DNA of 64,000 bases, from positions 1 to 64,000 of the IMG/VR virus record IMGVR_UViG_3300037461_001787, one strand, 5' to 3'. Numbering within the stretch: position 1 is the stretch's first letter; the number at the start of each line of letters is the position of its first letter. A program made the position numbers and the translations under genes. Shown here piece after piece: positions 14,394-43,294 of the stretch. Under the pieces are notes generated by a model, which saw only the letters and a list, made by a program, of their open reading frames with translations, was not told the DNA's origin and ran no database searches. The stretch is from a virus.

Positions 14394-15557
14394 ATGCCGG
14401 CGAACGTGGTCCATTCCGCGGAGCAAGAACGTTTGTGGGAAAAAGCCAAGGCCCAGGCCGAGGAGCAGGGACGGGCCAAGGATTGGCAGTACATCATGGG
14501 CATCTTCAAGCGTATGGGTGGGCTCGAAAAGAGCTATGTTGTCCCATCGCGTTTCAGGGCATCCACGGTACCCGGACAGGTGCCTAGTCGAGAGCGTTTG
14601 GCGGCGATGCGCGAGCAGCGTGATCTGGAGCAAATGCCCCGGCGGCCTGACCTCGTGCAGCTGTTGCAGAACACGGACCCGATGGGTTCTGCATCGAGCG
14701 TGGTTCGAGGTCTCGGTTTCGATGCGCGGGCTTCTGGAAGCTGGGAGCGGTTTCTGGAAAAGGCGGCGGCTTCTGCGCCCAATGAGCTGGTGCTGCGCCA
14801 GGCCGTTGTCGCGCAAGCGCGGGAAGACCATCTGCAACCGGAGCTGCGCCAGGCCATTCTGGAACGGGCGCTGTCTTTCTGGAGAACAATGCGCAAGTCG
14901 ATGGTGCAGGTGGTGACGGTTGATGAGCTGAAAAAGGCAGGACCCTACGCAAATGCGGGCATGCAAAAGGCGTCGCCTCCTGAGACATGGACGGTGGAGA
15001 TCGATTGCTCGCCAGCCGGCGCGCAGTCGCTTGTCAAGCTCATTGGGAAGGTCAAGCAATTGGGCAATCCAGGGCATTCGTTTGGCATCGTTCTCGACCC
15101 GGACAACGCCAAAGAGCAGGCGGGTTGGGATGGCGATGGGCCTGAGCGTATTTTCGAAATTCGGACACGCAAATCACAGCCGTTCCAGAAAAGCGATCCG
15201 CGTGGCGGCGCTTACCATCGCCGGGTCCCTCAAGAGGGCGGTGGTTATCGTTACATCTACGATCCGGAGAAGTATCAGGCTCGATCGGATGCGCATGTGG
15301 ATGGCCGCGAAGCGCGCAAAGCGTATCTGCATTCGCGGATCGCCCGCGAGGTTGAAGGCTGTGGGCTAGATGGTTGTGACCCGCAGATGGTGTTGGAAAA
15401 ATTTTCTGGAAAATTCTCAGCTGAGGAAATCAAGGAGGCGTTCAAGAGCGGTTGCGGCGGAAAGCTGGAATTCAAAAAGGGGCGGTTCTATGTTAGGGCT
15501 GGTGCCACTGAGGCCACCGCGAAGTCGGTACAGGGTAAGTTTTGCATAAGGAGATAA
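14394..15557 (+). CDS. putative head-associated multidomain protein with several x-x-K|S/A sites
   Basis: AGGAG RBS; lies between terminase and portal; LEKS, LEKA, MRKS, LKKA, MQKA and FQKS sites. Confidence 0.75.
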   Translation: MPANVVHSAEQERLWEKAKAQAEEQGRAKDWQYIMGIFKRMGGLEKSYVVPSRFRASTVPGQVPSRERLAAMREQRDLEQMPRRPDLVQLLQNTDPMGSASSVVRGLGFDARASGSWERFLEKAAASAPNELVLRQAVVAQAREDHLQPELRQAILERALSFWRTMRKSMVQVVTVDELKKAGPYANAGMQKASPPETWTVEIDCSPAGAQSLVKLIGKVKQLGNPGHSFGIVLDPDNAKEQAGWDGDGPERIFEIRTRKSQPFQKSDPRGGAYHRRVPQEGGGYRYIYDPEKYQARSDAHVDGREARKAYLHSRIAREVEGCGLDGCDPQMVLEKFSGKFSAEEIKEAFKSGCGGKLEFKKGRFYVRAGATEATAKSVQGKFCIRR

Positions 15558-15559
15558 GC

Positions 15560-17830
15560 ATGGCGGCGCGGTTTTTTCTGCGGTCGGAGTTGCGTAAAGC
15601 GCAGGGCCCTTTCATCGGGCCGAAGGGCGGCAAATGGGCTGATGCGGCGCATACCATCCCCTGGAAGGAACCCGGTGCTGCGGGGGGTGGTGCAGGCAAT
15701 GCTTTGGTGGCTCAGGGGGACAAGCTCATCAGCGAGCTGAGTCATTATCTGAGCGGCAAGGGCAAAGGCATATCACCGCAGGACTACGACAATCTCGATA
15801 CGGTAGTGGGGCAGTTGCGTGATACTCGGGATCAGCTCAAGACTGCAACCGATAAGGCGCATCAAAAAATGCAGTCTACTGGGGACCAGGATGATGCAGA
15901 GCATGCCAATCACCTTGCGCACGCTCTGCATCGGGTGGAGACGGCGCTGGGGATCAAGAAGCCTTCTGCGTCGTCTGTGCCGAAAGCGGATGTGCCGAAG
16001 CCGAAGGCGGCCAAGCAGGCACCTATTGGCAAGGCCAATGAGCACAACATCGATGCGGTGCCGGCGGGCATGGCCCGCGCTTGGCATCAACGTTGGAAGA
16101 ACGGGATCACGCCGGAGCCAATTTCCGGAACTTTGCACAAGCAGATCGCGAATTATCTGGTTCGCCATCATGATCGGGGGATGAATGCCGAAGACCACAT
16201 GGCGGCGGCAAAGTTCCATGAGCAGTACGGCGACGATGTTTATTCTGGAGAGAAGCTCCCCAGTCTGCCGCACAAACTCGCGCGCAGTCAGCGGCGGCAT
16301 TTGCATTCGACGCTTGCCAATCTGCATGAGAAGATGGCCACGAATCCAGATTTTGTGGGCAAGGTCTACGCGATCGCTGGAAAGAAGCCCAAAGTGAAAA
16401 AGTCATTTTCAGGATTGGACGGCATACAAGAGTACGCAAACAATTCTCGGTTTGAGGAGGTTGAGATGGGACAGGACTTTTTGAAAAAGGGATTTCCGCC
16501 TCCGGTGGCTTCGTCTCCGGCGGCTCCAGCAATGGCGGGCGGCGCTGCACAGGGTGGTAGTTCGATTCGGCGTTGGAAGGGGCCTGCAGGGAAATGGCTC
16601 TATGAGCACGACAACCCCGATCACAAGGCAGCTATCGATGCGTCCAATGCTGCCGAGACCAATCCGGGGACAGCGGGAGACCTCATCAACGCGCATCAGG
16701 CCGCAGCGGCTGCGCACCTCAAGGCTGCCCAGTCGATGCATCAGGATCCACAGGCGGCAGCGGAGCACGCGCAGGTTGCTGCCGATCATGCAAAGGCGGC
16801 GGCTGTGGTGCACGCGAATTATTTCACAGGCAAGGATGCGGCGGGCGCATCCGCGCAACCGGGACAGGCGCCAGTAGCGTCTGCGCCCGGGCAGCAACCG
16901 GGTACGGCACCTGCACAGCCTCCGATGCCGGGGAAATCGATTGCTCCGGGACAGACGCCAGTACCCCCGACGGACATGAAGACCACACCCAGCAACCCGG
17001 GCGGAGGTCAGCCCCCAATCGCGCCGTCTCAGCCGGGTGGGGCGATTCCGCCCGCAAAGTCGCAAGCAGAAAAAATGAAAAAGTTCCAGAAATCGATCGA
17101 TGGGATTGATGGGCTGAGTGCATATCTGGCCAAGGCCCAGGGCATGCCTGAGGGTGGCCCGCAGGAGCAGCTCGGTACGGGCGAAGAGCAGGGCGGCAAA
17201 GTCGATGGTGTGGGTCAGCAGTCAGGCGATGGCGATTCAGGCGGCAAAGGTTCCGGCGCGCCGGGTGTTGCGCATGAGAAATTGTCAGAAGACGACGAGG
17301 AAGACGAAGGGCAGATGAAGCCGCACAAAAAGCCGATCGAGACTGCGAAGTCGATGGCGGTGCCTGCCCATCAGCGGGAGATGGTTGCCCGTGAGCATGC
17401 TGTTGCGGTCTCGCAGCTCCAGAAAAGCGATGACGTGGTTGTAGGCTTGGGGGTCGGGCGCAAGCTCCCTCTCTCTGCGCCCGTTCCCCGGGCCATTTCT
17501 TGGCGGCAAGGCAAAGATGGTTTTGTGACCTACTCGAATCAAAGCGATTTGGATGTGGAGCGGCTGACCAAATCGGGCGAGTTTTACGTTGGCGATGCTC
17601 CCCAGATTTCACGGGTCGCACCACTTGTTGCGCAACAAGTCCAATGCCCGAGCTGTCAGAGTCGGATGGCGAAGTCGCTTGCGGTTTGCCCGGAATGCGG
17701 GGAAGGCGCCCAGCGCGCGGTGCCAAGGGTTATTTCGGATGGGGAGAGTGCTCCCAAGAGCGAGTACAACCGCCCGGGTCTGTTGCGGCCGGCGCGTCAC
17801 CGCGGAGATATTTACTTCCCGGGGAAGTGA
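15560..17830 (+). CDS. putative head-internal polyprotein (tag motif, His/Ala-rich helices, Pro/Gly-rich region, C-terminal Zn ribbon)
   Basis: AAGGAG RBS; LRK|AQGPFIGPKGGKWADAAHTIPW tag; CPSC..CPEC; many K|S sites. Confidence 0.8.
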   Translation: MAARFFLRSELRKAQGPFIGPKGGKWADAAHTIPWKEPGAAGGGAGNALVAQGDKLISELSHYLSGKGKGISPQDYDNLDTVVGQLRDTRDQLKTATDKAHQKMQSTGDQDDAEHANHLAHALHRVETALGIKKPSASSVPKADVPKPKAAKQAPIGKANEHNIDAVPAGMARAWHQRWKNGITPEPISGTLHKQIANYLVRHHDRGMNAEDHMAAAKFHEQYGDDVYSGEKLPSLPHKLARSQRRHLHSTLANLHEKMATNPDFVGKVYAIAGKKPKVKKSFSGLDGIQEYANNSRFEEVEMGQDFLKKGFPPPVASSPAAPAMAGGAAQGGSSIRRWKGPAGKWLYEHDNPDHKAAIDASNAAETNPGTAGDLINAHQAAAAAHLKAAQSMHQDPQAAAEHAQVAADHAKAAAVVHANYFTGKDAAGASAQPGQAPVASAPGQQPGTAPAQPPMPGKSIAPGQTPVPPTDMKTTPSNPGGGQPPIAPSQPGGAIPPAKSQAEKMKKFQKSIDGIDGLSAYLAKAQGMPEGGPQEQLGTGEEQGGKVDGVGQQSGDGDSGGKGSGAPGVAHEKLSEDDEEDEGQMKPHKKPIETAKSMAVPAHQREMVAREHAVAVSQLQKSDDVVVGLGVGRKLPLSAPVPRAISWRQGKDGFVTYSNQSDLDVERLTKSGEFYVGDAPQISRVAPLVAQQVQCPSCQSRMAKSLAVCPECGEGAQRAVPRVISDGESAPKSEYNRPGLLRPARHRGDIYFPGK

Positions 17831-17839
17831 GGAAGCTCG

Positions 17840-19510
17840 ATGGGCATGCTCGACAATTTGCAGCGGCTGGGGTGGAGTGCAGCTCAGCTCGCTGCGGCTG
17901 GATTCCAGAAAGCGGCAACGGCGCTTGCCCCTATGCCGACTGATGATGGCGCAGATACGATTCCGGGCGGCATGAATGCGGATACTGCGTTGACAAATCC
18001 GGTGCCGACCGAGAAGGCGGAAAAGGATCCGAAGGCGTTATTTTTTGATCCTTTCGCTATCATCGAGCAGTTGGGGTTCAAAGACCGTCCTTCCATGGTC
18101 ACTTATGGGACGCTCAAAGCGATCATGTGGCGCGTGCCGATCGTGCAGGCTATCGTGCAGACGCGCATTCAACAGATAGCGGCGTTTTGCCGACCGCAGC
18201 ACGATCGGTACCAATTGGGGTATCGATTGAAGCTGCGTGAGCAGGAGAAAGAGCCTAGTCGCATCGAGCGGCAATGGATGACGCAAATGGAAGGGATCAT
18301 CAATCGCACGGGCGTGACCGATAACCCGCGCGGTCGAGATAGCTTCGAGCGGTTTCTGCGGAAGATTGCCTGGGACAGCATGGTGTACGATCAAATGTGC
18401 TTTGAAGTTGTCCCGAATAAGCGAGGTCAGCCCGCTGAGTGGTATGCGGTCGATGCGGCAACGATTCGACTGGCCGATAGCGCGAGCACGTATCTCAATG
18501 AGGATCTCGATACGGCCATTCGCTACGTCCAGATTTACGACGGGATGATTATCGCCGAGTATACTTGCGATGAGTTGTGCTTTGCCATCCGCAATCCGCG
18601 GACGGACATCAAGCTCCATGGCTACGGAGTGAGCGAGCTTGAGATGCTCATCCCGACGGTGACCAGCATCCTCTACGCTTTCGACTATAACCAAAAGTTC
18701 TTCAGCCAGGGCAGCGCAGCGAAGGGCATCATCAATTTCAAAGGCACGGTTCCAGAAAAACAGTTGCAGGCTTTTCGGCGCCATTGGTATCAAATGCTGA
18801 GCGGAGTCGAGAACGCTTGGCGGACGCCGATCACAAACTCCGACGAGCTGCAGTATGTCAATCTGCAGCAGTCCAGCCGCGACATGGAATTCAACGCCTA
18901 TATGGATTTTCTGATCAAGATCACCTGCGCGATTTACACAATCGATCCGGCGGAAATCAATTTCAAGTATGGCAACGTTGGTCAGAAATCAGGCCTGCAA
19001 GAGTCGTCCAACAAAGAGAAGGTGGTCGAATCGAAAGAACGCGGTTTGCGCCCGTTGTTGCGCGGTATCGCCCAGGCGATCAACCAGTACATCATCTGGC
19101 CGATCAACGAGGAGTTCGAGTTTGACTTTGTTGGGTTGGACGCCAAAACGAAAGATGAGATCGCCGACCTCAACATGAAGCGCGTGAAAAGCTTTTGCAC
19201 AGTGGACGAAATCCGTGCAGAAGACGATCTGCCTCCGTTGCCGAATGGCGGGGGAGAATTGTTGCTGGATCCCACCTGGCTGCAATTCAACGCGCAGAAG
19301 CAAGCGATGTCGCAGGGCGGGATGCCCGGGGCTGGATCGCAGATGGGCGAAGGCGATTCTGATATCTCTCCCGATGGCACAACACCGGGGAATGGAAATC
19401 CGATCGACTTCGATTCGCTCATCCGTCAGTATGATCAACAGGGCGCAGATGACGGCGCTTTGGCGGACGAGGCCAGCAAGTCAACGCGCAAGTGGATTGT
19501 GAACCTCTAA
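17840..19510 (+). CDS. portal protein
   Basis: YDQ..FE.V, VDA.TIR, NPRTD...GYG.SELE, FFSQG...KG, DMEF...AIY.IDP.EI.F, SK.RGL.PLL motifs typical of SPO1/Twort-like portals. Confidence 0.93.
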   Translation: MGMLDNLQRLGWSAAQLAAAGFQKAATALAPMPTDDGADTIPGGMNADTALTNPVPTEKAEKDPKALFFDPFAIIEQLGFKDRPSMVTYGTLKAIMWRVPIVQAIVQTRIQQIAAFCRPQHDRYQLGYRLKLREQEKEPSRIERQWMTQMEGIINRTGVTDNPRGRDSFERFLRKIAWDSMVYDQMCFEVVPNKRGQPAEWYAVDAATIRLADSASTYLNEDLDTAIRYVQIYDGMIIAEYTCDELCFAIRNPRTDIKLHGYGVSELEMLIPTVTSILYAFDYNQKFFSQGSAAKGIINFKGTVPEKQLQAFRRHWYQMLSGVENAWRTPITNSDELQYVNLQQSSRDMEFNAYMDFLIKITCAIYTIDPAEINFKYGNVGQKSGLQESSNKEKVVESKERGLRPLLRGIAQAINQYIIWPINEEFEFDFVGLDAKTKDEIADLNMKRVKSFCTVDEIRAEDDLPPLPNGGGELLLDPTWLQFNAQKQAMSQGGMPGAGSQMGEGDSDISPDGTTPGNGNPIDFDSLIRQYDQQGADDGALADEASKSTRKWIVNL

Positions 19511-19520
19511 GGAGATCGAT

Positions 19521-19910
19521 ATGCGACTGAGGCACAAAGTTATCGTGAAGGTATCCGACGATGCCGACATGAAGGATTTGCTGTTTGCGACAGATGAGCA
19601 GCTCGCCGAGGTGATTATTGACAGTTGGACCAAATCGCTATCGGGTAAGGTTACTGTAGCGATGAACACTGCCGAGAATCTCTGCTTGGGCGATATCGCC
19701 TTGGTCAAAGGGATCTACCTCAAGGCCAACAAGGACGTTACGATCAAGCTCAATGGGAGCGCAGATCCGATCGTGCTCAAGCGCTCGGGGACCTCCACCA
19801 ATCATTTCGCCAAACTCTTTTTAGAAGCTGCCATCACCCAGGTCAATATTGCTGCGCCAGCGACAGAGGATGCGGCGATTGTTTACTGCATTTGGGGTGT
19901 GGATAGCTAA
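19521..19910 (+). CDS. hypothetical virion-associated beta-rich protein
   Basis: AAGGAG RBS; directly after the portal. Confidence 0.7.
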   Translation: MRLRHKVIVKVSDDADMKDLLFATDEQLAEVIIDSWTKSLSGKVTVAMNTAENLCLGDIALVKGIYLKANKDVTIKLNGSADPIVLKRSGTSTNHFAKLFLEAAITQVNIAAPATEDAAIVYCIWGVDS

Positions 19911-19935
19911 GCGCGCGCAGCGCAGGGAGATGTCG

Positions 19936-22900
19936 ATGCGCCTTGAGCTACAGGCTACTCCGGAAGAGATCCGGGAAAAGTCGGGTCAGTTGTTAGAGCG
20001 CTTGGGCGAGCTGTTGAGCGGCGACGTTCCAGAATTTACGGATGCGCTGGAAAAAGCGTTGCCGGCAAAAGAGCAAGAGCTGAAGTATCCAGTGCTGCGC
20101 GAGCTGGCGGCAAAGTCGCGTGAGTTGTACGCTCATCAGGTGGATCGCATGATCCGAGAGATTGCCGAGGTCATCGACGAGGCAGTGGACATCCAGAAAT
20201 CGATGGAAGCTGATTTTCTGGAAAAAGGTGGGCCGTATATAGGCCCCAAAGGCGGGAAGTGGGCTGACCCGCAGCACACCATCCATTGGACGGGCGATGA
20301 GTCCGAGCAGTCGCGGCAGATGGCCCAGCATTCAGGACCTCCTGAAGGGGTCAAGCCGCTACCCGACGAAGCGGCCAAGGCGTTGCTCATTTCCATGGGT
20401 GATCTGCTTTACGGCTTGCAGCATGGGCTGCACAACATCCAAGATGATTCTGGATTCAATCATTACGATTTTAGTTATTGGCACAGTGTCCGCGGAAATC
20501 TTTCTGGAATGCGCAAGATGCTCAAAAAGTACAAGGGGCAGATCGATTCGCATCTCGGATCCAAGGCATACTATGAGGCTGGCCTCCACCTGGTCGAAAA
20601 AACCACGGGGGTCAAAGTACAGCCCCAGTACCATGCGACCTTTGGTTCATTGATGCTGCCTTTGGATGGGTATTTCAAAGGTGACTTCAAACAGTATTGC
20701 AGTGCGGTGAAGGCGTATGGGGCGCAGTTCGACGGCAACAAGAAATGCTTTTTCATCCCCAAGCTCAAGCTCGCCGGTTTTGATTTTGCCGCGTACAAAG
20801 CGGACATGGCGAAATTCGGCATCGAGGTAGCCGATCCCATCGGGGTGCCAGCCAAGCCCAGTACGTCTGGGGAAGTTGCGATTCCGCATGCGGCTCCGTC
20901 TCCGTCTGCGCCCAAAAGCGTGGAAGAGATTATTTCTGGAATTCACTCCAACCATGTCAAGGACACGATCGTAGTGCGGTTGCGTGAGGATGGGATTTTT
21001 GAGTTTCACTCGCCTTACGCACCTGCGTTCAATGCGTTGTTTGCAAACAAGGGCGGGCAGCTTTCTGGAATTACCAAATACAATCCTATCACCCATGCGC
21101 GTGAGACCTTCGATCTCGATCTCACGGAAGAGGCCATTGAGAAACTCAAAGCGCTTTTCCCGAAGTGGAAGATTGTCACGCAGGGCGTGAAAGAAGCGCG
21201 GATCAAACGCGATCAGGAGATCGCGGAACTGCAAAAGCCTATTCCTGAAGTGCAGGAGAAGTTGGATCCGGCGTTCAAGCTGATGAGTTACCAGAATGAG
21301 GGCGTGCGTTTTCTGGATAAGGCAGATGGCAATGCACTTATCGGTGACGAAATGGGGTTGGGGAAAGCGGCGAGTGTGGATGAACGTATCCTCACGCCGC
21401 AAGGGTGGAAACGGTTCGGGGATTTGCAGGTGGGGGATGAGGTCATCGATCCTGAGACGGGAAAGGCTGCTCGGGTAGCGGGTGTCTACCCCCAAGGCAT
21501 GCGAGAAGTTTGGGAGCTTGCCACCAAGGACGGGGAGACCATTGAATGCGATGCAGAGCACCTCTGGCATGTTTACACTGCGATGGATCGCTACAGAGAG
21601 AACGGCGGGAAGGTGCTCACTACCGCCCAGCTTTTGGCGGAGGGGGTGCGCACGGGTCACGGTAAGGGGCAGTACCGCTGGTATCTGCCAGTAGCGGTGG
21701 CGCAGGAATTCGAGTTTCGGGGGGCGCTGCCAGTGCCTCCGTATGTGCTGGGGGTGCTCATCGGGGATGGAGCGATAGCGCATTCGGCAGTGGGGTGGAC
21801 GAAACCGGATGTAGAAATCGTCGATCGGGTAGCGTCCCTTCTCCCAGAAGGTTGTGCGGTTGCGCCGCATGAAGTGGCTCCAGATAAGTGCCCGACCTGG
21901 GGCATTTCTGGAATCGGGGGGAAGAACGCGATACTTGATGGGCTGAGGGAGCTGGGGTTGCAGGGATGCACGTCGCTGGAGAAGTTTATTCCAGAAAGAT
22001 ATTTATTCGCCTCGATTGAAGACCGCAAGCAATTGCTCGCAGGCCTGATGGACACCGATGGGGATACACCAGTAGGGGCAACGTGCATCTATAGTACCTC
22101 GTCCAAGCGGCTGGCAGAGGATGTGATTTTTCTCGCCCGGTCATTGGGGTGTATGGCTTCTCTTTCCACCAAGAAGGCTCCCCGCTACCGCCACAACGGA
22201 GAGGTGCGAATCGGCCAACCGAGCTACCGGGTCAATATTCGCGCAGCGTTCAATCCGTATTTTCTGGAACGTAAGGCTGAGCATTGGGAGGAGTCCAGTC
22301 TGGCGCGGCCAGTGGCAGACATTCGACGCACTGATCGGCAAGTGGAAATGCAGTGCATTGCCGTGGAATCAGTGAACAATACCTTTATCCTTCACGGCCA
22401 CGTCGTCACGCACAACACCATCCAGACGCTTGCCTGGGCGGCGAAGAACAACAAAAAGGTGCTGGTGGTTTGTCCGAAAGTTGTGCGTAAGAATTGGCTG
22501 GAAGAGGCCCATAAGTTTTTTCCTGAGCACTTCAAGGGTGCCGAGCTTGTTGCTGCACAGCTCAAGAAAGGGCAGGTGCCGGACCTTTCCGATGTCAACA
22601 TCGCCACGGTCAACTACGAGTCGCTTTCCAAGTTCGAAGAGGCGATCAAGGCAGCGGGATTCGACACGATCGTGATCGATGAAAGCCACCGGGCAAAAAA
22701 TCCGAAAGCGCAAGTGACGCAGAATCTCCAGAAAATCGGTGCAGGGATGAAGCACCATATTCTGCTTTCTGGAACGGCGATCAAAAACAAGAAGGAAGAG
22801 CTATTCACGCAGCTCGATATGGTCGCGCCGGGGAAATTTACCAAGAATGCGATCAAGACGGCTTCGATCGGCGGTCTGTGGCTGGACATGCATGCGTTCT

Positions 22901-31553: not shown

Positions 31554-31567
31554 TCACGGGGAGTGCT

Positions 31568-31861: not shown

Positions 31862-32036
31862 GGACAGCGAGGGGTTGCTCACCCCATACGGCATGGCCGT
31901 CGCTCACCGCTATGCCCAGGCCTGGGTGACTCGGGGGCTGCGAGATTTGGAGTTGGAGCGTGAACATCCTGAATTGGCAGGTCTTTTCTGGGATATTAGG
32001 GTTGACCCTGAGCTGGCTCGCGCACATGCGGTTTGA
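31815..32036 (+). CDS. hypothetical protein with LKK|A and LAK|A sites
   Basis: GGAGG RBS with ATG. Confidence 0.55.
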   Translation: MKYVMPLKKALAKATEDSEGLLTPYGMAVAHRYAQAWVTRGLRDLELEREHPELAGLFWDIRVDPELARAHAV

Positions 32037-32084
32037 TGGTGGTGTGTTGGTTTCTGGAAAAATCTCATGATTGGAGATAACTCC

Positions 32085-35000: not shown

Positions 35001-38000
35001 TCGTGGCCGAGCCATTGGCAGCAGGGCAACCACCAGGCCAAGAAAGAGGCAGATGGAAGTTGGGACTTTATTGCTGCGCCAAATCCTCAGATGGGCCCAT
35101 TTGGGAAGCAGAGCCTGTATCAGCTAATGGCTTATGTGTCCCTATCCGTTGGCGCAGGCCATCAGCCAAAAGTGAAGTTGCCGAATGAAGGCGGGCCGGA
35201 AGCTGCATCGGCTGCGCCAGTTCCAGAAAATTCCAAAACTGATCAGCAGGTGGCGTTGGTTGACGAAATCAAAGCCACAGTGAAGTTGCCGAAGCTTGCC
35301 GGGTTTGCGAAAACGGTTCAGTTGTTGAAGGATTTGCCCACGGGGATTGTGCTCAAAACAAAATCTGGTCTGGGGACGCAGTACGCTTACGCGAAGCAAG
35401 CCGATGGCACATGGTCAGTGAGTGGAGGGCTTACGACCGTTTCTAATTTTGCGATCGATGCCCTTGCGGCTGATTTGTGTTCTGAGAATGAGATTATTGT
35501 CGGCTTCACCCCCGCAAGCGAAGTAGCGCCGATTGTCCCTACGAGCGAAAAGTTCCCCACGGACGTGGTGGCGTTTTCTCAGTTGCCTGTCGGGACCTTT
35601 GTGCAGACCAAGGCGAATTGGGGCGCGATCACCAAATGCGTCAAAAAAGCGGACAACAAATGGGAAGTCACATTGGAGTCGGGGGAGTCGGTTACCTATA
35701 GCGACATAGATGCGTTCAATCTGATCAGCGCTGAAAAACTCGACACCTGGAATCCGAAAGGAGAGGTTTTATTCGCGCCAGAACAGGCGCCAGAATCGGG
35801 AGCATCCAACTGGCCATGGTTTGAGCTGCATCCAACAGAGGCAGCGGATAAAGTCAAACCGGATATCGAGGTCGGGGGAAAAGAATTCGACAAGCTGCCA
35901 GCGGGTACCAAACTACAGTTTGTGAAAGACAAGGGGCCGAATGCCCTCTTGCACACGGCGGTCAAGAACGACGAAGGAAAATGGGATTTCAAGTTTGCGC
36001 AAGGCATCAAAGAGACCTATTCCAATGCTACTGCAAAGATTGCGCTGGGGCATCTCAATGTGGGCATCAAACAGCTTGTCGGGCCGGGCAAAGATTTCAT
36101 CGAAGATGCAGCACCAAAACTGCAAGAGCCTAGCATTCCCCCAGGTCTCATTGCGCAGGATGTAGCTACGTTGCCATTGAACATTGAGAATTTTGTGGGT
36201 TTGCCTGTTGGCACTGTGGTGACAACGATCAGCAACGTGGGCTCGGGTTGGACTTACACCAAAACCGATACGGATACGTGGCAAGCGCAAAAGGGGGGAA
36301 CAGAGAACATTTTTTCTGGAATGATGAGCGCAACAGTTTTGGGGGATCTGAAGGACGAGCACATATTGACGTATGCCATCCCGTCTGTTGCGGATATTCC
36401 TGCCCCAATAAAGCCAGCGCAGAAGCTCGATAGCATCGTGAGCTACGTTGATCTGCCCGCGGCGGCTAAAGACGCTATGACCACAGTGATGGTCAATATT
36501 TTGAAGCTTCACAAAAACGATCCGACCAAATTGCAAAAGCCGAGCAATTGGCCGGCATGGGTACCGCCCACAGCGCTTATTCTCAAGGGCGTGATCGACG
36601 GCAAAGAGTTTTACGTTTTCAATTCGGCGATGGCCAAGAACAATGACGGATCACCGGCTACGCAATTTCGGTTTTCTGTGGTGCTGCCTGACGGCACTTT
36701 TTACACTGGAGTGCCAGATGAAAAGCCAATAATGGCGTTGGGCTCAGCCATGCAGCAGGCCGGAATTACGGCCAGTGGCATCGACGCCAAAGAGGCGCTC
36801 GGGTTGTATGGGGTGAGTTTTCCAACGGGCGCGACTGAAGCGGATCCATTTCTGGAAAAAGCATCTCCTGCTATTGGAGCGCTCAAACCGGTAGAGCAGA
36901 TGACCCCGGTGGAGAAGACCGCCAAAGTCAAAACCAACATGCCGCTCAAGCAAGCGCTCAAAATGCATCCGGGCCTGCAAGCGGGAACGCTCAAGGTGAA
37001 AAAGGCCAAGGGCGATGCGATGTATATTTGCTTGGATGGTGTCGAAGGGGCCAGCACCAAACTCTACGAGGCTCTCCAGGACCTCGGAGTGGCGCACGCG
37101 ATCAAGAATGTTGGTGGCATGCCCAAAGTCAACGCGAAGGGAGCTTTTGTAACGGTCGATAATTGGGTGCTTGATCAGGAAGTGACTGTGGAGACCACAG
37201 CGCTTGCTGCTTCCAGCGCGCAACATGCGCCGAGCGATCCCAATTGGCAGACGATGCCCAAAGCCAAAACGAAAAAGCAAACCAAGAAGCAGATCCAAGC
37301 GGCCAAAGAAGCGCAGCAGAAAATGGCAGAGGCCAAGGCCAAGGCTGGGCAGATCAAGGTCTGGGGAGAGCAGCATCCGCCAGTTTCCGATGCGGCTGAT
37401 CTGCAGTTGCTCGCTTATGTGCAGAAGGGATTTGATCTGTTTGGTATCCCTTACGGGGCCATTGCTCGGGCGGGGGATGGCAAGATATTTCTGGGCCACA
37501 AGACGCACTACGAGCAGCTTAAGAAATATTTGACGCAGCTCGATGCGGGTAAGGGCGCGGTTGTCCCGGTGAAGACTCCGCTGGGCGAGATGCTCTCGGT
37601 TGATCTTGTGCAGCTCAAACCGGCGTTGGAGAGCTTTAGTGGTCTGCCGATTGGTGGAGTGATCAAAGGGCCTGACGGGAAGGAATACCCGGCTGGAACT
37701 ACGTTCCAGAAAAAGGTGGTTGAGACCACGGTTGCGCAGTTGTTACCCGGAGAGCCGGGATTCTACAAGATCATGGATCACAAGGCTGAGCCCAACGTGC
37801 TTGGCTTGATCAAGATTTCTGGGACTGGCGCTGAGCAGATCGCGCAAATGAAAGCGATGATCGAGAAGTATGGGCTCGAAGGGCCTTTCCCGGCGCCGAA
37901 GGCTTCAGAGAATTCCATTATTCACTCGGTCTACAAAAAGTCGCTCCAGAAAATCTGGAAGACGGAGGAAGTGCATACGCCTACGATCCCAGAACAGCCG

Positions 38001-39398
38001 GCGGCTTTTGTCGCGGGGTCGTTGCCTTATTCTGAGCCCGCGAAGGTATGGGAGGAAGTTGGGGATGGGTCGGGGGATCTGGCCAATATCGCGGCGGTGA
38101 AACCGGCGTTGTTTGGGACCGTGTTGCGCATTGGCGCTCCAGGACAATTGCGTGATTTCAGCATTCGCTACCGTAAGGTCAAGGATCCCAATGGCAAACT
38201 CTACTATGAGTTCACTGGGGATCTGGTGACCTTCAATGGGTTGGGTACGGGATTGCAGTCGGGGACGGTCAAATACGCTTCTACCCAAAACAAGCCGATG
38301 TCTGGGATGGGTGAGAAGAGCGTCAAGGTGATGGACTATGATCCAGCCACGGGCGTGCATACAGAAGCGTCGGAAATCGGTGACGGACCTGACCCCAAAG
38401 GATTTTTCGGTACCACTGAGGCGGGCAGCTCGATTTCAGTTGTTCCGCCCAGCAGTGATCAAGATACGCTAAAAAACACATTCCGCGTGCGTATCCCGAT
38501 GGAGTTGGATCCGGTGGCGGAGTTGCGTGCGGCATTCCAGAAAATGGGTAAGGACCCCGATTTGGTGCTGGCTTCGATCAACGAAGACAGTGATCGCATT
38601 TTCAAAAAATCAATGTACGTTCGCGGTCTGATGGGAGCCAGTGGGTGGAATGAGGGGCAATTTACTCCGGAATTGATGCACAATGAGGAGTGGCTGGATG
38701 CACAGCTTGCAAAATTCGGGGCCAAAACGAAGGCCCAGAATTTGAAAGTGGTGAAAACATTCGATAACCAAGTTTCTGTAGTGGCTGATGATGTCGAGAA
38801 GTTCGCAGAGTGGAACTTCGCCTATGTGGGCTCAAAGTCGTTTGGGACAACACTCCAGCTGCTACAAGGTTCAGGCTGGTCCAGTCGGCGCAATCGATTG
38901 CTGCACGGAGTCTGGAACGGGGGGCAATCAGCGGGAGCTGATTTCCAAAACGGAGGAGCGAAAGGGACTTTCTTTCGCATCGCAGGTCCGGGGAAAGCGA
39001 TGCTCAGTTCCTATGAATGCCAGATCATTGTTCATCCACGGGTATTTCAGCGCACTGACTGGTGGCGATACAACCAAGATGGGTACGGCAACACCTCCTC
39101 ATACAACCAACATGGTGCTCCTGTGGCTAAATCTCCCAAACGGTATACGGGGGAATTGTCCACCACCAATGAGATCATTTTTGAAGGCGGTGTTTCCGCC
39201 CAGGACATTGTTGCGGTGGTCGTAAACGATGACACGCAACGCGCGGACATGATAGCCAAGCTCCAGGCGGCGGGGATTACTGAGCTGAATGGAAAACCGC
39301 TCAACGAGGTAATTATTCCGGAAGTCTACAAAGGCGCCAATGCATATGGAAACTCGGATGCCTTTGCCAAGGTGTTGGGGATCAAGAAAGGCGAGTAG
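32085..39398 (+). CDS. giant polyvalent protein: HipA/PI3K-like kinase, RAMA-like domain(s), 5 LP.GT..K..D..W repeats, C-terminal putative ADP-ribosyltransferase-like domain
   Basis: WVFKP, AE..A, DWLISNHDSHAGNFL, AIDKG kinase motifs; FDTLSAAS...GW.FW; C-terminal S..AD..GGA..FFR...NEIIF. The kinase is well supported; the ART call is tentative. Confidence 0.8.
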   Translation: MLPMTKFYFLEPEPLIKALIKMKPVKVQLGSWKGLTIIGIGPRNGKIVGYRSDGKPIYAGSHAAEQLALIQKQKHTYTPAQQDVELVKWLQALGLQGAVDAEQVHLSKEGATLLQTAFGVTPAALGGGKWGIGKALLLPHLGEPLKPTEEHITGWAAQMAAGDQDEVFPPLHTLKEIPAGKFVGSHNNQLFLDKSGKKWVFKPADPTIARAEEAASRIGRLLLGDRIPAAKYVDVKGKGGVLIQVLDGEVWQESSSQHSDPQLSYLKKYAEQVVQHEVVDWLISNHDSHAGNFLADGEKLVAIDKGQAWKWIGNDVLDPAYKGSNPSYQIYNKFWESVKQGKIGSVGLVEAVAEIVNRAEKISPEQFALLVAPYVSTWAGGKDADPHERLQKMVSRLTNLRGDFEQFLSSQLQKPITLPKPSAVQVNWETPPVQPLGEEKGKVKQEEKPQPVQLTTPASESQPILQEVEHTPVLSAKPAAGWPLTKKGAKTVQVTVHHPGQVPPTNWPVGTPGPAMHLTCGYKGAQYSLMVGEDMAAKKPIFTVTYPNGDKADFSSLNAAGDSLYLYNKGLPLNLTATEKKKQGISLGSKVFQLKLFEQELAEAYGKKDEPVPVAVATPEQLEEQKVIEPEQKQATAFQLLTTAQPAGTVLSMYDPALPQEIKEFTLAHSGKNQLSGDWDLALTPGQVVIGKHDFFGGPVIFAARLSKEGKPELWGWWEGVEGAPQSGQWTGATAKVFLESLGLKNNPALAQAKKEYEQAVQFEASHSDPIGSPPEVVLPESATVPETAPKFTAGPLAAGTTIKVKKKVPGYDKKQEVVLTALQNGKLLVEIPGQTAQTFDTLSAASDHVWVVQKGYTDAADYKAQNKTNKVPSGGGWKFWGVSPTTATVGAGDQLGAGAVAAPSVAGNDLPAVGAPAEVPAPAGVTAPAEAKEQGKVPFDAALGEKDSQGWQALKTATTPVIDALPAGTVLSWPSHWQQGNHQAKKEADGSWDFIAAPNPQMGPFGKQSLYQLMAYVSLSVGAGHQPKVKLPNEGGPEAASAAPVPENSKTDQQVALVDEIKATVKLPKLAGFAKTVQLLKDLPTGIVLKTKSGLGTQYAYAKQADGTWSVSGGLTTVSNFAIDALAADLCSENEIIVGFTPASEVAPIVPTSEKFPTDVVAFSQLPVGTFVQTKANWGAITKCVKKADNKWEVTLESGESVTYSDIDAFNLISAEKLDTWNPKGEVLFAPEQAPESGASNWPWFELHPTEAADKVKPDIEVGGKEFDKLPAGTKLQFVKDKGPNALLHTAVKNDEGKWDFKFAQGIKETYSNATAKIALGHLNVGIKQLVGPGKDFIEDAAPKLQEPSIPPGLIAQDVATLPLNIENFVGLPVGTVVTTISNVGSGWTYTKTDTDTWQAQKGGTENIFSGMMSATVLGDLKDEHILTYAIPSVADIPAPIKPAQKLDSIVSYVDLPAAAKDAMTTVMVNILKLHKNDPTKLQKPSNWPAWVPPTALILKGVIDGKEFYVFNSAMAKNNDGSPATQFRFSVVLPDGTFYTGVPDEKPIMALGSAMQQAGITASGIDAKEALGLYGVSFPTGATEADPFLEKASPAIGALKPVEQMTPVEKTAKVKTNMPLKQALKMHPGLQAGTLKVKKAKGDAMYICLDGVEGASTKLYEALQDLGVAHAIKNVGGMPKVNAKGAFVTVDNWVLDQEVTVETTALAASSAQHAPSDPNWQTMPKAKTKKQTKKQIQAAKEAQQKMAEAKAKAGQIKVWGEQHPPVSDAADLQLLAYVQKGFDLFGIPYGAIARAGDGKIFLGHKTHYEQLKKYLTQLDAGKGAVVPVKTPLGEMLSVDLVQLKPALESFSGLPIGGVIKGPDGKEYPAGTTFQKKVVETTVAQLLPGEPGFYKIMDHKAEPNVLGLIKISGTGAEQIAQMKAMIEKYGLEGPFPAPKASENSIIHSVYKKSLQKIWKTEEVHTPTIPEQPAAFVAGSLPYSEPAKVWEEVGDGSGDLANIAAVKPALFGTVLRIGAPGQLRDFSIRYRKVKDPNGKLYYEFTGDLVTFNGLGTGLQSGTVKYASTQNKPMSGMGEKSVKVMDYDPATGVHTEASEIGDGPDPKGFFGTTEAGSSISVVPPSSDQDTLKNTFRVRIPMELDPVAELRAAFQKMGKDPDLVLASINEDSDRIFKKSMYVRGLMGASGWNEGQFTPELMHNEEWLDAQLAKFGAKTKAQNLKVVKTFDNQVSVVADDVEKFAEWNFAYVGSKSFGTTLQLLQGSGWSSRRNRLLHGVWNGGQSAGADFQNGGAKGTFFRIAGPGKAMLSSYECQIIVHPRVFQRTDWWRYNQDGYGNTSSYNQHGAPVAKSPKRYTGELSTTNEIIFEGGVSAQDIVAVVVNDDTQRADMIAKLQAAGITELNGKPLNEVIIPEVYKGANAYGNSDAFAKVLGIKKGE

Positions 39399-39400
39399 CT

Positions 39401-39736
39401 ATGCGCACTGATTTGGCCTACGAGGTACACTGTGTTTCCGATCCTGCGTCAGCCATTGGGCGTATCGGAACGATCATCCCGCGGCCAGGTGGAATCTTGC
39501 TCGCGACGGATGGTCATTCGCAATTTCTGGAAATAGACGACCCGGATGATCAGCTCATCGATGACGAATCGACGGGATACGTGGAAATCACCACAGCCAA
39601 GGGCCGTTATTTTCTGAATGCCATTGATCGTGACGCGGGCGAGGAACTTTCCCCTTTTTTCCAGAACGCTCCGGCCGAGTTTGACAGCGATGAGGCGGCC
39701 CAGGCTTTTTACCAAAAATTATTGGCGCAATTATGA
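39401..39736 (+). CDS. hypothetical acidic protein (possible partner or immunity protein)
   Basis: Starts 2 nt after the giant ORF; D/E-rich. Confidence 0.65.
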   Translation: MRTDLAYEVHCVSDPASAIGRIGTIIPRPGGILLATDGHSQFLEIDDPDDQLIDDESTGYVEITTAKGRYFLNAIDRDAGEELSPFFQNAPAEFDSDEAAQAFYQKLLAQL

Positions 39737-39942
39737 GATGCCCGCACTGTGACAATCACCTGCTCCAGAAATCTGGAAGTCGGGTGCGGGTGCGGACACA
39801 AGGGCCCATTGAGTTTGAGGGGGCGCATTGTCGGGCAAAATGCTATTGGTGTGGTTCGGCGGTGGACTTGCCGCTCAAAATCCAAGAGGGTGCTCCTATC
39901 GCCCGAGAGCAGTTTCTTCTATCTTCACGGAAAAGAGATTGA
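39733..39942 (+). CDS. small Zn-ribbon protein (Mu Com-like)
   Basis: MRCPHCD.HLL...KCYWCG pattern. Confidence 0.6.
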   Translation: MRCPHCDNHLLQKSGSRVRVRTQGPIEFEGAHCRAKCYWCGSAVDLPLKIQEGAPIAREQFLLSSRKRD

Positions 39943-39966
39943 CAGAATTCTGGAATCGGATACGTT
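39939..39966 (+). promoter_or_regulatory. possible sigma70-like promoter for the head genes
   Basis: TTGACA-16nt-TACGTT; the spacer contains TTCTGGAA. Confidence 0.45.
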
Positions 39967-40069
39967 GAAATCAATCAGAGAAGCGCGGCGATAGGCCCGT
40001 TAAGGTTACTACCGGTCGGGGCGGACGCTTTGCAGTACGAGCGGTCCGCCCTTACTTTTAGGAGCAAAG

Positions 40070-40900
40070 ATGGAGTCATTCGCTTTCGATGTGCCGGTAG
40101 ATTTTTTCGAAAAGGCCGATGCCGAGCCGGGTAAAGAGCGACGTATTGGCGGCATCGCGACCATCGAGACCAAAGACCGTCAGGGGGAAGTGATTCTCGC
40201 CCGCGGCGTGGATTTCAGTGATTTTGTCCAAAATGGTTGGTTCAACGACAACCATTCGAAGCGCACCACCGACATTCTCGGTTACCCCGAGCGGGCCCGG
40301 TTTTTTCGCAAAGGGGAAGAGCTGCCCAGTGGAGAGAAAGCTCAGGCTGCGGGGCATTGGGTAGAGGGTTATTTGCTTGCGACCCCCGAAGCCGATCGAG
40401 TCTGGGAATTGGGCAAGGCGCTTGCACAAACCAAGCGGCGGCTGGGGTTTTCGGTGGAAGGGAAGATTGAGAAGCGTGTTGGCCCAGCGCAAAAGACCAT
40501 TGCCAAGGCGTTGGTGAGGAATATTGCCATTACCAATTGTCCTGTTAATGCTGGGGCTCGGATGGAAATTCTGGCCAAGAGCCTCTACCACCTCGGGCTG
40601 GACGCGCCGGTGGAAAAGTCACTCGGCATGGGCGTTGTTTCTGGGAATCCTCCGGTTCCGCCGGCGATGATGGGCCCGCAGAGCGGCATGGGCGCCGGAC
40701 GGGTGCTTGCTGGCCAAAGCCTGGAACACGATGAGATCGATACTGTCTCTGACGAGGACGAGAAAAAGAAAAAACGGCGCATCAAGAAGTCACTGACCGA
40801 TAGCGAGGCGTATGCGTGGCTGCGCGCCCGGCTGCCCCACGCCAAACCGGAACAAATCGGGCGCATCATCACGCTGACCCGCGAGCGCAAGCGGCGGTAA
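40070..40900 (+). CDS. prohead (capsid maturation) protease
   Basis: DRQGEVI, FNDNH (His), LGFSVEG (Ser), IAIT..PVN motifs; located upstream of scaffold and capsid. Confidence 0.9.
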   Translation: MESFAFDVPVDFFEKADAEPGKERRIGGIATIETKDRQGEVILARGVDFSDFVQNGWFNDNHSKRTTDILGYPERARFFRKGEELPSGEKAQAAGHWVEGYLLATPEADRVWELGKALAQTKRRLGFSVEGKIEKRVGPAQKTIAKALVRNIAITNCPVNAGARMEILAKSLYHLGLDAPVEKSLGMGVVSGNPPVPPAMMGPQSGMGAGRVLAGQSLEHDEIDTVSDEDEKKKKRRIKKSLTDSEAYAWLRARLPHAKPEQIGRIITLTRERKRR

Positions 40901-40921
40901 GCATATGCGAAGGAGATAGGT

Positions 40922-41806
40922 ATGGCAGACAAGTTGAAGAAAGCGCAAGACGAGGAAGAGGAAGGTGGGGGGATGGACAACCCCGATGAGCAGATGGCCG
41001 CTGAGGAAGATTCGGAGAAGGGTTGTGGCGCGAAGAAAAGCGCTTGCGGCACAGCCGAGAAGGGTTGTGGCACAGCCGAGAAGGGCTGCAAAAAGTCGGA
41101 TGAGCTGACAGAGGATGATCTGCAGAAGTCCCTTGATCAGCTCTCGGCATTGACGGAAGACAAGACCATCTCCCGCAAGCAGCAATTGCTTACCAAGGCT
41201 CAGGGGAGCGAGCTGAGCAAGAGCGAGCAAAACGAGCTGTTTGAGTTGCTTGGCAAGAGCGAGCAGACCAAGCAGTCGCTCAGCGGTGAAGTCACAAAGG
41301 GCTTGGGCAATAATGACACCTTGCAAAAGGCACTTGATGTTTCCGATTTTCTGCAAGAGCAGCACTCCGAGCTGATCAAATCACTCGGAGTGCTGGCTGA
41401 GGCACTGGAGAAGAGCGATTCGCGGCAGCATGAGTTCAATCTGGTGCTCGCCCGCGCGGTCTCGGGCATTGGCCAGTTGACGAAGAGCCTGGGTGAGCGA
41501 GTCGGCGTCATCGAGGCGCAACCGGCACGCGGTCCCAAGAGTCGCGGAGTTGCTGGCGCCCAGCCGCTGGAGAAGAGTTTTGTCGGCGCCAATGCTCAGG
41601 GAACGCAGCTGAGCAAGGCCGCGGTGCTCGATGAGCTGGAAAACATGGTCCAGGAGTCGATGCAGAAATCCCTCGGTGGGATGACCGAAGATGGTTTCGA
41701 TTTGGTCACCGCCAGCTCAAAGTACGAGCAATTCAACCTCATCAGCCAAGGCCTGCTCGACCAGGTGCAGAAGCGCATCCAGGAGCGAAAGGTCGCTGCC
41801 CGCTGA
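40922..41806 (+). CDS. scaffolding protein
   Basis: Acidic and helical; between protease and capsid; 13 [LVM]-x-K-[SAG] sites. Confidence 0.8.
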   Translation: MADKLKKAQDEEEEGGGMDNPDEQMAAEEDSEKGCGAKKSACGTAEKGCGTAEKGCKKSDELTEDDLQKSLDQLSALTEDKTISRKQQLLTKAQGSELSKSEQNELFELLGKSEQTKQSLSGEVTKGLGNNDTLQKALDVSDFLQEQHSELIKSLGVLAEALEKSDSRQHEFNLVLARAVSGIGQLTKSLGERVGVIEAQPARGPKSRGVAGAQPLEKSFVGANAQGTQLSKAAVLDELENMVQESMQKSLGGMTEDGFDLVTASSKYEQFNLISQGLLDQVQKRIQERKVAAR

Positions 41807-41863
41807 GCATCCGGGCCAGCAAACTTTAGGTAATTTTGCCCAAGCGGGCAGGAGGAAAAATTC

Positions 41864-43294
41864 ATGTTCGGATTGAACCAGGTGAGCTGGAAAGACTATG
41901 AGGGCGTCGAAGGTTTTGGCGCCGCTACCCAGCAGGATGTGGACGAGTTGAACAAAGCGCTGACCGCCGGTCAGGCCATCCAGGGCCCGGGAGGCACTGC
42001 GGGGGATGGCTTCGCGCTGCGCGTCGAATCGCTGGAACGGACCCTGAAAAACACCACGTACAAGATGGAGCACATTCGGTTCTGGAAGGCCTTGCCCAAG
42101 TTGCCAGCTTACAACACGGTCGAAGAGCACAATGAGATGAGCCAGTACGGGGCGAACCCGGATGCGGGATTCATCTCGGAAGGCGATCTGCCCGAAGAGG
42201 ACGATTCGATCTACACCCGTAAGTACGCAGTGGTGAAGTACCTCGGCACCACGCGGAAGGTCACCCACGTCATGTCGCTGATCAAGCCTGCCCACGGCAA
42301 CGTGGTCGCGCAAGAGACGGTCAACGGAACCATGCACCTGCTGCGCGTGATGGAGCGGGCCCTGTTCTACGGAGACAGCAGCTTGTCCGCTCTCCAGTTC
42401 GACGGCTTCGAGAAGTTGATGAAGGATTTGTGCCCGACAACCAACGTCATCGATCTGCGTGGTTTGCCGTTGAGTGAGGACGTGCTCACCGATTCAGCGC
42501 TGACCATTCAGGACGCGCCCAACTACGGCACGCCCACCCATCTGTATCTCAATCCCAAGGTCAAGACGGATCTGGTCAAGACTTTCTTCCCCAAAGAACG
42601 CCACGACACGTTCCAGAAACAGGGTGGATTCGTCGGTCTCGACATCAAGGGCTTCACGTCCCCTGCGGGTGACGTGCTCTTCGAACCCGATGTGTTCATC
42701 ACCGATGGTGGCGGCGCGAATGCCAATGCGGTTGGCGATGCGTCAAAGCGTCCGGGTTCGCCGTCTTTCACGACCAATCCGACCACGCCGGCTGAGACCA
42801 CCGGGAAGTTCACGGCGGACGATGCCGGTGACTATCGCTATGCGGTGGTCGCGGTGAATCGCTACGGGCGTTCGGCTGCGGTGGCTTACGGTTCCGCAGT
42901 GACCGCTCACACGGGAGATAAGGTCACTTTTGGTCTGACCCCTTCGAGCGCGACAACGGGCTGGTACGAGATCTATCGGACGCCGAAGAACGGCGCGATC
43001 GGCACAGCACGCCTTATCATGCGCGTTCCCAATGCGGCAGGCGCGGGTGAGACCACCATCAACGATCTCAACTGGAACCTGCCGGGCTGCACAAGCGCGT
43101 TCTTGTTCCAGCTCAATCTGGAGAGCATGAGCTTCAAACAGCTCGCTCCCATGGTCAAAATTCCGTTGGCGACCATCGACAGCTCGATTCGCTGGATGCA
43201 GCTGCTCTATGGCGTGCCTGTGCTCTACACCCCGGGCAAGAACGTCCTGATCCGCAATATCGGAAGAGCCGCAGGATACGTGGGCGCTCCGTAA
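41864..43294 (+). CDS. major capsid protein
   Basis: K|ALTAG...ALRVESLE, E.D..Y.RK...VKYL, E.ALFYGD.SL..LQFDG motifs resembling SPO1/Twort/K-like capsids. Confidence 0.93.
   Translation: MFGLNQVSWKDYEGVEGFGAATQQDVDELNKALTAGQAIQGPGGTAGDGFALRVESLERTLKNTTYKMEHIRFWKALPKLPAYNTVEEHNEMSQYGANPDAGFISEGDLPEEDDSIYTRKYAVVKYLGTTRKVTHVMSLIKPAHGNVVAQETVNGTMHLLRVMERALFYGDSSLSALQFDGFEKLMKDLCPTTNVIDLRGLPLSEDVLTDSALTIQDAPNYGTPTHLYLNPKVKTDLVKTFFPKERHDTFQKQGGFVGLDIKGFTSPAGDVLFEPDVFITDGGGANANAVGDASKRPGSPSFTTNPTTPAETTGKFTADDAGDYRYAVVAVNRYGRSAAVAYGSAVTAHTGDKVTFGLTPSSATTGWYEIYRTPKNGAIGTARLIMRVPNAAGAGETTINDLNWNLPGCTSAFLFQLNLESMSFKQLAPMVKIPLATIDSSIRWMQLLYGVPVLYTPGKNVLIRNIGRAAGYVGAP

Follow-up and report, generated by a model that had tools for sequence, protein, structure and literature searches.

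The DNA analysed here (the window) is the first 64 kb of the 109,277-bp IMG/VR record IMGVR_UViG_3300037461_001787, a viral genome that CheckV rates as complete. It carries the head module of a phage that is known only without cultivation and whose capsid genes are of the SPO1 type; all genes are on the + strand. The genes follow the order large terminase (terL), three small open reading frames (ORFs), proteins of 410 and 762 amino acids (aa), the portal protein, a 129-aa protein, four large ORFs (1840, 452, 1446 and 2443 aa) with small ORFs interspersed among them, the protease, the scaffold and the capsid protein. A PHROG search with the small ORFs of this module gave no match. In a cultured relative, Bacillus phage SP-10, the genes for portal, protease, scaffold and capsid protein form an unbroken series and cargo genes do not separate portal from protease; approximately 20 kb of extra genes have therefore been inserted within the head module of the window. 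These genes, which lie between terL/portal and the prohead protease, encode polyvalent effector proteins. Our subject is a 20-residue peptide, termed the tag, that recurs in these proteins shortly downstream of a site of the form [LVIMF]-x-K-[SAG] (the K-site), and the possibility that the two elements together direct the loading and processing of capsid cargo.

The features on which the argument depends are listed below. Expected K-site counts derive from composition-preserving shuffles, and a bar within a motif marks the bond at which cutting is predicted.

10964 to 12973, + strand: large terminase (terL), matching Pfam Terminase_6N and Terminase_6C; the upstream limit of the interval that holds tags.
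14325 to 15557, + strand: 410-aa protein rich in K-sites (7 sites, 1.6 expected, z 4.1), a possible extra internal or scaffold-like head protein.
15542 to 17830, + strand: 762-aa tag-headed protein with a low-complexity middle (10 K-sites, 3.4 expected, z 3.6).
15590 to 15664, + strand: junction and tag, copy 1, LRK|AQ-GPFIGPKGGKWADAAHTIPW (profile E 1.6e-20).
17840 to 19510, + strand: portal protein (Pfam Phage_portal, E 8.8e-28), with FQK24|A near its N-terminus.
19849 to 25371, + strand: 1840-aa polyvalent protein comprising a K-site-rich leader, a tag, an intein-split SNF2 helicase, a 60-aa module, a second tag and a weak zeta-like P-loop module.
20218 to 20289, + strand: junction and tag, copy 2, LEK|G-GPYIGPKGGKWADPQHTIHW (profile E 1.2e-20).
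24190 to 24273, + strand: junction and tag, copy 3, LFK|AAAVG-GPFIGPRGGKWADPEHTISW (profile E 3.5e-19).
25341 to 26699, + strand: 452-aa protein comprising a leader, a tag, a 60-aa alpha/beta module and an HExxH zincin-like module.
25548 to 25619, + strand: junction and tag, copy 4, LKK|S-GPYVGPKGGLWADPQHTQHW (profile E 5.3e-16).
27213 to 31553, + strand: 1446-aa MuF-like polyvalent protein comprising a MuF-like N-domain (aa 1-269) with a Hint intein, an InPase domain, a variant motif, a 60-aa module and a PolyA_pol-type nucleotidyltransferase.
29877 to 29970, + strand: variant motif, LEK|S ... TGPRGGKIIGW...PIYY.
32067 to 39398, + strand: 2443-aa protein in which a variant motif lies close to the N-terminus and aa ~270-312 give weak PI3/4-kinase or HipA-like leads.
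32127 to 32262, + strand: variant motif, LIK|A ... IGPRNGKIVGY...KPIY, shared by homologues of the 2443-aa protein and again N-terminal in them.
40070 to 40900, + strand: prohead maturation protease (phrog_1028, E 2.8e-33) with a K-site-rich tail.
40922 to 41806, + strand: scaffold protein (phrog_15087).
41864 to 43294, + strand: SPO1-like major capsid protein, whose leader (aa 1-31, 41864-41956) ends in LNK31|A32.

As first reported in the initial annotation of this DNA, the near-identical peptide GP[FY][IV]GP[KR]GG[KL]WADxxHTxxW occurs four times in three ORFs. Twelve of its positions are invariant. The K-site said to precede each of these copies is likewise present: LRK|A, LEK|G, LFK|A and LKK|S, in order of position. 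When the entire record of 109,277 bp was searched with a profile made from 126 tag copies, these four and no others were found, even with the threshold relaxed to E<=10. At the DNA level the copies differ at synonymous sites (mean column identity 76%, exact runs short only), and selection has therefore acted on the peptide. Recent gene conversion or a repeat at the DNA level was considered as the origin of the tags and was rejected on the same grounds. No Pfam or PHROG match was found for the ORFs at 15542-17830 and 25341-26699 or over the tag regions of the other ORFs, and a literature search did not recover the string 'GPRGGKW'.

Three additional sites, at about 15183, 29877-29970 and 32127-32262, had been described as variant copies of the tag. 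The profile detects none of the three, and they are rejected as true tags. The site near 15183 matches in PRGG only. The other two belong to a separate recurrent motif, GPRGGKI[IV]G[WY]...PIY, whose K-site lies 12-25 residues upstream.

Beyond the record, back-translated patterns recovered 142 tag copies from IMG/VR that were confirmed by tblastn. Eleven more were found in GTDB genomes, all on contigs of metagenome-assembled genomes, several of which also encode homologues of the head genes. When 1.84 billion representative proteins were searched with the tag profile, 796 matched at E<=1e-3 and 535 at E<=1e-10, and the tag-bearing proteins mostly hold two to five copies each. The cluster members examined come from metagenomic sources only, on contigs of up to 110 kb. 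Most tag loci encode homologues of the portal protein of the window (60-90% identity, in 66 tag-bearing loci), its protease and its capsid protein (31-72%). These shared head genes place the tag in a single large, uncultured clade whose genomes measure about 100-113 kb.

Within this clade the tag is confined to one part of the head module. All 159 tags that could be classified lie between terL and the protease gene, 49 of them between terL and portal and 90 or more between portal and protease, and none is found past the protease gene or the capsid gene. Five genomes with a completeness of 95-100% have their tags grouped in a single stretch of roughly 7-13 kb. The K-site accompanies most of them: the pattern [LIVMFWY]-x-K-[AGS], with Lys 3-6 residues before the aromatic residue, is present in 109 of 122 distinct IMG/VR contexts, and a K-site lies within 9 residues of 288 of the 327 tags in an independent set of the top 150 library proteins. 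We estimate that a K-site would stand directly before a tag by chance in a few percent of cases. The initial annotation had asked whether profile hits lie between terL and the capsid gene and always follow a K-site. The location holds for every classifiable tag, and the K-site precedes about 88-89% of tags rather than all of them. Many of the library tags that have no K-site within 9 residues have one slightly further upstream.

The layout around the junction is asymmetric. The proximal site has the logo [D/S/E]-L-x-K|[A/G/S]-G, and a second K-site is found 6-22 residues further upstream in 40% of tag cases, compared with 16% for sites not linked to a tag, which hints at short spacers that may be excised. 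The first tag lies no more than 45 aa from the N-terminus in 52 of 150 proteins, and the last tag lies this close to the C-terminus in only 2 of 150. Leaders before the K-site vary in sequence and in length, from 5 to more than 100 aa, and the conserved element is located after the site. Many tag ORFs have leaders of 5-15 residues that end in the K-site, as in MRYFEK|AGPF and MALVIPLRK|AGGPY. A few ORFs begin with MSAGPF or MAGPY, and loss of the initiator Met would leave them identical to the product predicted from cutting.

The same four-residue pattern is concentrated in proteins on which the head protease is expected to act. The scaffold has 13 K-sites where 1.7 are expected (z 9.4), and the protease has 7 where 1.3 are expected (z 5.2). 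The sites recorded in the initial annotation (13 in the 294-aa scaffold, several in the protease, FQK|A in the portal protein and LNK31|A32 in the capsid protein) are all present. Furthermore, scaffold homologues from eight related loci give z values of 6.7-9.6, protease tails from related loci mostly give 3.4-4.9, and the scaffold-like protein and protease of SP-10 give 5.8 and 6.4. Overall, the enrichment amounts to 6-8 fold in the scaffold and protease tail of the window, the related loci and SP-10. The proposed excess of sites in head proteins over other proteins thus holds for scaffold and protease, since ORFs outside 14.3-43.3 kb have an observed/expected ratio of 0.93; it does not extend to the giant ORFs (see below). 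Judged from these counts, the K-site is a signature of this head-protease lineage.

A position matrix trained on 78 scaffold sites only ranks K31 of the capsid protein as the top non-scaffold site in the window. The next sites are K891 (13.3) and K610 (13.2) of the 1446-aa protein, followed by K69 in the 1840-aa protein and then by K19 in the 762-aa protein. K610 sits between the intein and the InPase domain.

The capsid protein provides a link to known maturation sites. It is 39% identical to that of SP-10 and matches SPO1 Gp6.1 (structure 9vel) at E 1.8e-84. The L-x-K|A element of its leader is conserved in related loci, and the SP-10 leader reads NLNK|ALE. In the capsid protein of phage 812 (5lii, 463 aa), the residue aligned with K31 is K24. 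The 439-aa chain of 9row has the same sequence as the phage 812 protein from residue 25 on, and the mature phage 812 capsid protein would therefore start just after this Lys. HK97 gp5 and A511 Cps are also cut after Lys.

In the protease, His62 and Ser128 are invariant in an alignment of homologues. The sequence LAK170|S171 (40577-40582), at the end of the catalytic domain, is invariant in 12 of 12 aligned homologues and is probably a self-cleavage site that would free the K-site-rich C-terminal tail. Thus, a protease of this lineage encoded beside scaffold and capsid genes, a Lys at the aligned capsid maturation site, and site enrichment in scaffold and protease tail, three traits expected where an HK97/SPO1-type Lys-specific prohead protease has its substrates, are found together in the window.

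These features can be assembled into a mechanism in which the unit is a cassette. Each cassette would consist of a hydrophobic-x-Lys|[Ala/Gly/Ser] site, the 20-residue tag GP[FY]IGP[RK]GGKWADxxHTIPW located 0-3 residues further on, a flexible linker, and an enzyme or other module. Precursors would enter the prohead, and the HK97/SPO1-type serine protease (40070-40900) would cut them after Lys, which is also the cut predicted for the scaffold, the capsid leader and the protease's own tail. Cutting would separate the modules inside the shell, and each product would retain the tag at its new N-terminus. The tag would then serve as a short linear motif, disordered by itself, for docking to a partner that is highly conserved and is probably part of the prohead or virion. 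Such docking would make each cassette self-sufficient for capsid loading, for exit with the DNA, or for both.

We assign a probability of about 0.6 to this reading, namely that cassettes are loaded into the prohead, are cut by the maturation protease and keep the tag as a functional N-terminal docking address. Cleavage at the tag junctions by the head protease, taken as a separate step, appears likely from the comparative evidence. More doubtful, and offered tentatively, is the broader idea that the tag is a portable cargo signal of a large uncultured clade, exposed at the N-terminus either by the protease or by removal of Met, that docks on a conserved virion component. If this idea were correct, the tag would bring any attached protein into the capsid, thread it out together with the DNA, or do both; injected effectors could be read from sequence, and foreign proteins could be loaded by the addition of about 25 residues. 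The polyprotein and tag proposal of the initial annotation is thus supported in part by comparative sequence evidence, with the three variants and two of the enzyme labels falling away in the form in which they were given.

Several observations weigh against processing followed by docking. Taken whole, the giant ORFs show no enrichment of K-sites (11 against 8.8 expected, 7 against 5.5 and 16 against 14.3). With the matrix trained on scaffold sites, two of the K-sites before tags in the window receive only moderate scores or rank below the top 70, and about 7-11% of tags have no nearby K-site. The mature start given for phage 812 is deduced from how long a deposited chain of its capsid protein is. 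In addition, searches of isolate phage records and plasmids gave no tag match at E<=1, so that the tag is found in no cultured relative.

The K-site could also be the N-terminal part of one composite motif that is kept behind leaders of only 5-15 residues. This possibility leads to an alternative in which the proteins stay uncut and the whole element, including L-x-K-[AGS], is a repeated internal docking motif that could bind DNA, a virion part or a host factor, and that resembles a protease site by coincidence or because the resemblance is merely tolerated. The tight spacing of the K-site as an integral part of the conserved motif fits this alternative, as does its persistence where cutting would remove so short a leader. 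However, the pattern is the one that is enriched in scaffolds and that marks the capsid maturation site, and an exposed, disordered site near an active prohead protease would be hard to protect. Tags also head modules and almost never end them, and the ORFs that begin directly with a tag mimic a cut product. We therefore regard uncut proteins as unlikely.

The physical character of the tag region bears on the proposed docking step. In an AlphaFold2 (AF2) model of the 452-aa protein, the predicted local distance difference test (pLDDT) score is 25-30 over the tag region and 70-80 over the following 60-aa alpha/beta module. In the 40 residues after tags, disorder-prone residues are enriched and hydrophobic ones are depleted. 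With its low pLDDT and disorder-prone flank, the tag has the appearance of a short linear motif for docking, held on a flexible tether. The same 40 residues are only slightly basic, with a mean net charge of +1.35 against a background of +0.66. A basic DNA-binding tail after the tag is not supported by this value as a general feature. A loading or docking role is favoured over a purely DNA-binding one because the tag is the only conserved element by which single-cassette proteins with tiny, variable leaders could be addressed to the prohead. A capsid-loading role, possibly combined with exit, thus seems at least as likely as the address first suggested. A complex prediction that paired the catalytic domain of the protease with the tag alignment scored 0.00, which speaks neither for nor against binding.

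The cargo itself conforms to a known class of phage protein. Tag-bearing ORFs of related phages encode Zeta_toxin, ART-PolyVal, PAPS_reduct, SNF2, ddrB-ParB, InPase and DarA_C domains, and no tag lies inside a domain. In the window, single chains combine at least two unrelated effector or enzyme domains (SNF2 with a P-loop module; a MuF-like domain with InPase and PolyA_pol). The domains come from the known polyvalent repertoire, with InPase PF18823 in the window, others in relatives and MuF as a weak match, and they are encoded beside portal and terminase head genes. On the basis of domain content and gene neighbourhood, the tag-headed proteins are polyvalent proteins of the type defined by Iyer et al. 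(2017).

Segments between tags are mosaic. Of 1567 pairs of homologous segments, 814 are followed by unrelated downstream neighbours and 31 by homologous ones, in a library whose representatives are no more than 50% identical by construction. As judged from these pairs, modules are shuffled at the tags. This shuffling could mean that the junction is mainly a recombination linker for swapping cassettes between genes or phages, similar to the pre-toxin motifs of polymorphic toxins, and that the peptide has no function of its own. Reshuffling occurs exactly at tags, and the same cassette can be found as a separate ORF or as an internal module, both of which a linker would explain. It would not explain the peptide-level conservation indicated by the synonymous differences among the four copies in the window, or the twelve residues that are invariant across phages with capsid proteins that are only 31-72% identical. 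A role solely in recombination is consequently the least credible of the explanations that we consider, and we hold it to be highly improbable.

The zincin-like cassette suggests one more way in which modules might be released. The modules could be freed by the cargo's own zincin/MPTase-like peptidase (25341-26699), either before packaging or after injection, without involvement of the prohead protease. The conserved HExxH module is indeed present and is itself tag-headed, and processing of polyvalent proteins has been ascribed to MPTase domains (Iyer et al., 2017; PMC5512222). Of 84 loci, however, only 2 yielded homologues of the zincin domain (aa 223-449), in contrast to the universal presence of tags and K-sites, and the site follows the code that the head protease is expected to read in scaffold and capsid leader. 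Self-processing of this kind appears very improbable.

The zincin label is based only on the conserved HExxH and a downstream PHExWAE motif; an alignment with the homologues in two related loci, L074 and L056, keeps HExGH and PHExWAE. The cassette is a separate ORF in the window and the third cassette of a 1183-aa polyprotein in L074. A search of the PDB for folds resembling the AF2 model of the 452-aa protein returned nothing significant, and its weak top rows are zinc hydrolases. The adjoining alpha/beta module of about 60 aa (GGKVVPH...L.VVK.P) is found in three cargo proteins of the window (25629-25820, 23923-24102 and 30006-30188) and is duplicated in L056. This module had no PDB fold match.

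The 1840-aa protein, whose true start is probably a Met near 19930, gives Pfam matches to SNF2-rel_dom, Helicase_C and Hom_end. Its zeta-like module matches Zeta_toxin weakly, at E 1e-3, which is below the cut-off used by Pfam. A LAGLIDADG homing-endonuclease intein interrupts the SNF2 ATPase domain at about 21400-22400, with Hom_end and LAGLIDADG_3 at aa 714-797, and intein-free homologues align to aa 17-516 and 857-1249. The 1446-aa protein matches InPase PF18823 (E 1.9e-29), Intein_splicing and PolyA_pol. Its N-terminal 269 aa are kept in 58 loci and match Phage_Mu_F weakly (E 0.01 in 5 of 13 homologues). A second intein, at about 27980-28900, lies at the Cys-rich end of this MuF-like domain (Hint_2 at aa 257-287, Intein_splicing at aa 290-562). 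Two inteins therefore reside in cargo genes of one head module.

The 2443-aa protein has no Pfam or PHROG match along its whole length, and its homologues are restricted to two loci, L056 and L017. The five enzyme activities originally assigned to the cargo thus differ in standing: the SNF2 and PolyA_pol nucleotidyltransferase labels are firm, the zeta-like and HipA-like labels are weak, and the zincin is recognized by motifs only.

For the 762-aa protein, the probable start is the ATG at 15560, which would give a 13-aa leader ending in LRK|A. Its C-terminal ~190 aa (17258-17830) carry a CxxC...CxxC zinc ribbon and are conserved just upstream of the portal gene in many loci, at 33-68% identity. 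The 410-aa protein encoded before it has homologues in 18 related loci and no match in Pfam or PHROG. At aa 204-214 of this protein (14934-14966), the sequence LKK|AGPYANAGMQK|A resembles a decayed tag start between two K-sites. Directly after the portal gene, a 129-aa beta-rich protein (19521-19910) is kept in 31 tag-bearing loci at 34-81% identity. It belongs to no Pfam or PHROG family, and is a candidate for a clade-specific head component and possible partner of the tag.

Genomes of the clade (G000-G005 and the present record) measure 102-113 kb, yet their capsid protein is SPO1-like. Phages of the SPO1 type package about 130-150 kb. If the SPO1 shell size has been retained, spare internal volume for protein cargo would exist.

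Injected phage proteins are the first weapons against host defences, and they are hard to recognize from sequence. A 25-residue rule, consisting of the Lys site plus the tag, marks hundreds of candidate head-cargo enzymes, including kinases, ADP-ribosyltransferases, helicases, ParB-like proteins and pyrophosphatases. If the tag were sufficient for loading, it would also offer a compact handle for packing foreign proteins into phage capsids.

The head genes of the window most closely resemble those of HK97/SPO1-type phages (HK97 gp4/gp5; the Herelleviridae phages 812, A511 and SPO1), with which they share a homologous protease, scaffold and capsid protein and a Lys at the aligned capsid cut position. 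SP-10 has the same K-site enrichment in scaffold and protease and differs in its uninterrupted run of head genes. With regard to cargo, the T4 internal proteins IPI-III and Alt carry a short N-terminal capsid targeting sequence that is cut by the prohead protease gp21, after which they are injected with the DNA. The mechanism proposed here likewise involves an N-terminal signal for prohead entry and trimming by the maturation protease at a short hydrophobic-x-charged site. In T4, however, the address precedes the cut and is lost with it, cleavage takes place after Glu, and each protein is a single module. In the phages described here the address lies downstream of Lys, is predicted to be retained and recurs in polyproteins, and a conserved leader upstream of the cut, as in T4, is not found.

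The Dar proteins of phage P1 (DarB, DdrB and DarA) are large, head-packed antirestriction proteins, and ddrB-ParB and DarA_C domains occur in tag-bearing relatives of the window. DarB needs no more than its N-terminal 30 residues to be targeted to the capsid (PMC9024508). Unlike the cargo described here, the P1 proteins have no repeated tag, and P1 belongs to a different capsid lineage, its capsid protein being cut after Glu120. In phiKZ and SPN3US (gp175/gp245), the prohead protease processes many internal and ejected head proteins and recognizes a three-residue code. The mapped cuts are after Glu and all remove an N-terminal propeptide, except for the C-terminal self-cleavage of the protease, and the study reports neither multi-module release nor a conserved, retained tag (PMC10052503).

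The closest precedent for the cargo is the set of giant, multidomain, phage-type polyvalent proteins that were predicted to be packaged in heads and injected (Iyer et al., 2017; PMC5512222). The proteins in the window and its relatives are likewise giant, are encoded beside portal and terminase genes, and draw on InPase, SNF2, MuF-like, Zeta toxin, ART-PolyVal, ddrB-ParB, DarA_C and zincin domains. In contrast to our findings, the text of that paper mentions no recurring tag and no prohead-protease sites at module borders. Our comparisons suggest that the polyvalent proteins of this clade may be true polyproteins cut by the capsid protease, rather than by peptidase domains of their own as was proposed in 2017. 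As in T4, P1 and phiKZ/SPN3US, cargo would be brought into the prohead and trimmed there by the maturation protease; relative to these systems, we infer that the present one would differ in having an address that follows the cut and is kept, that recurs in polyproteins so that each chain would yield several products, and that is combined with cutting after Lys and with polyvalent cargo.

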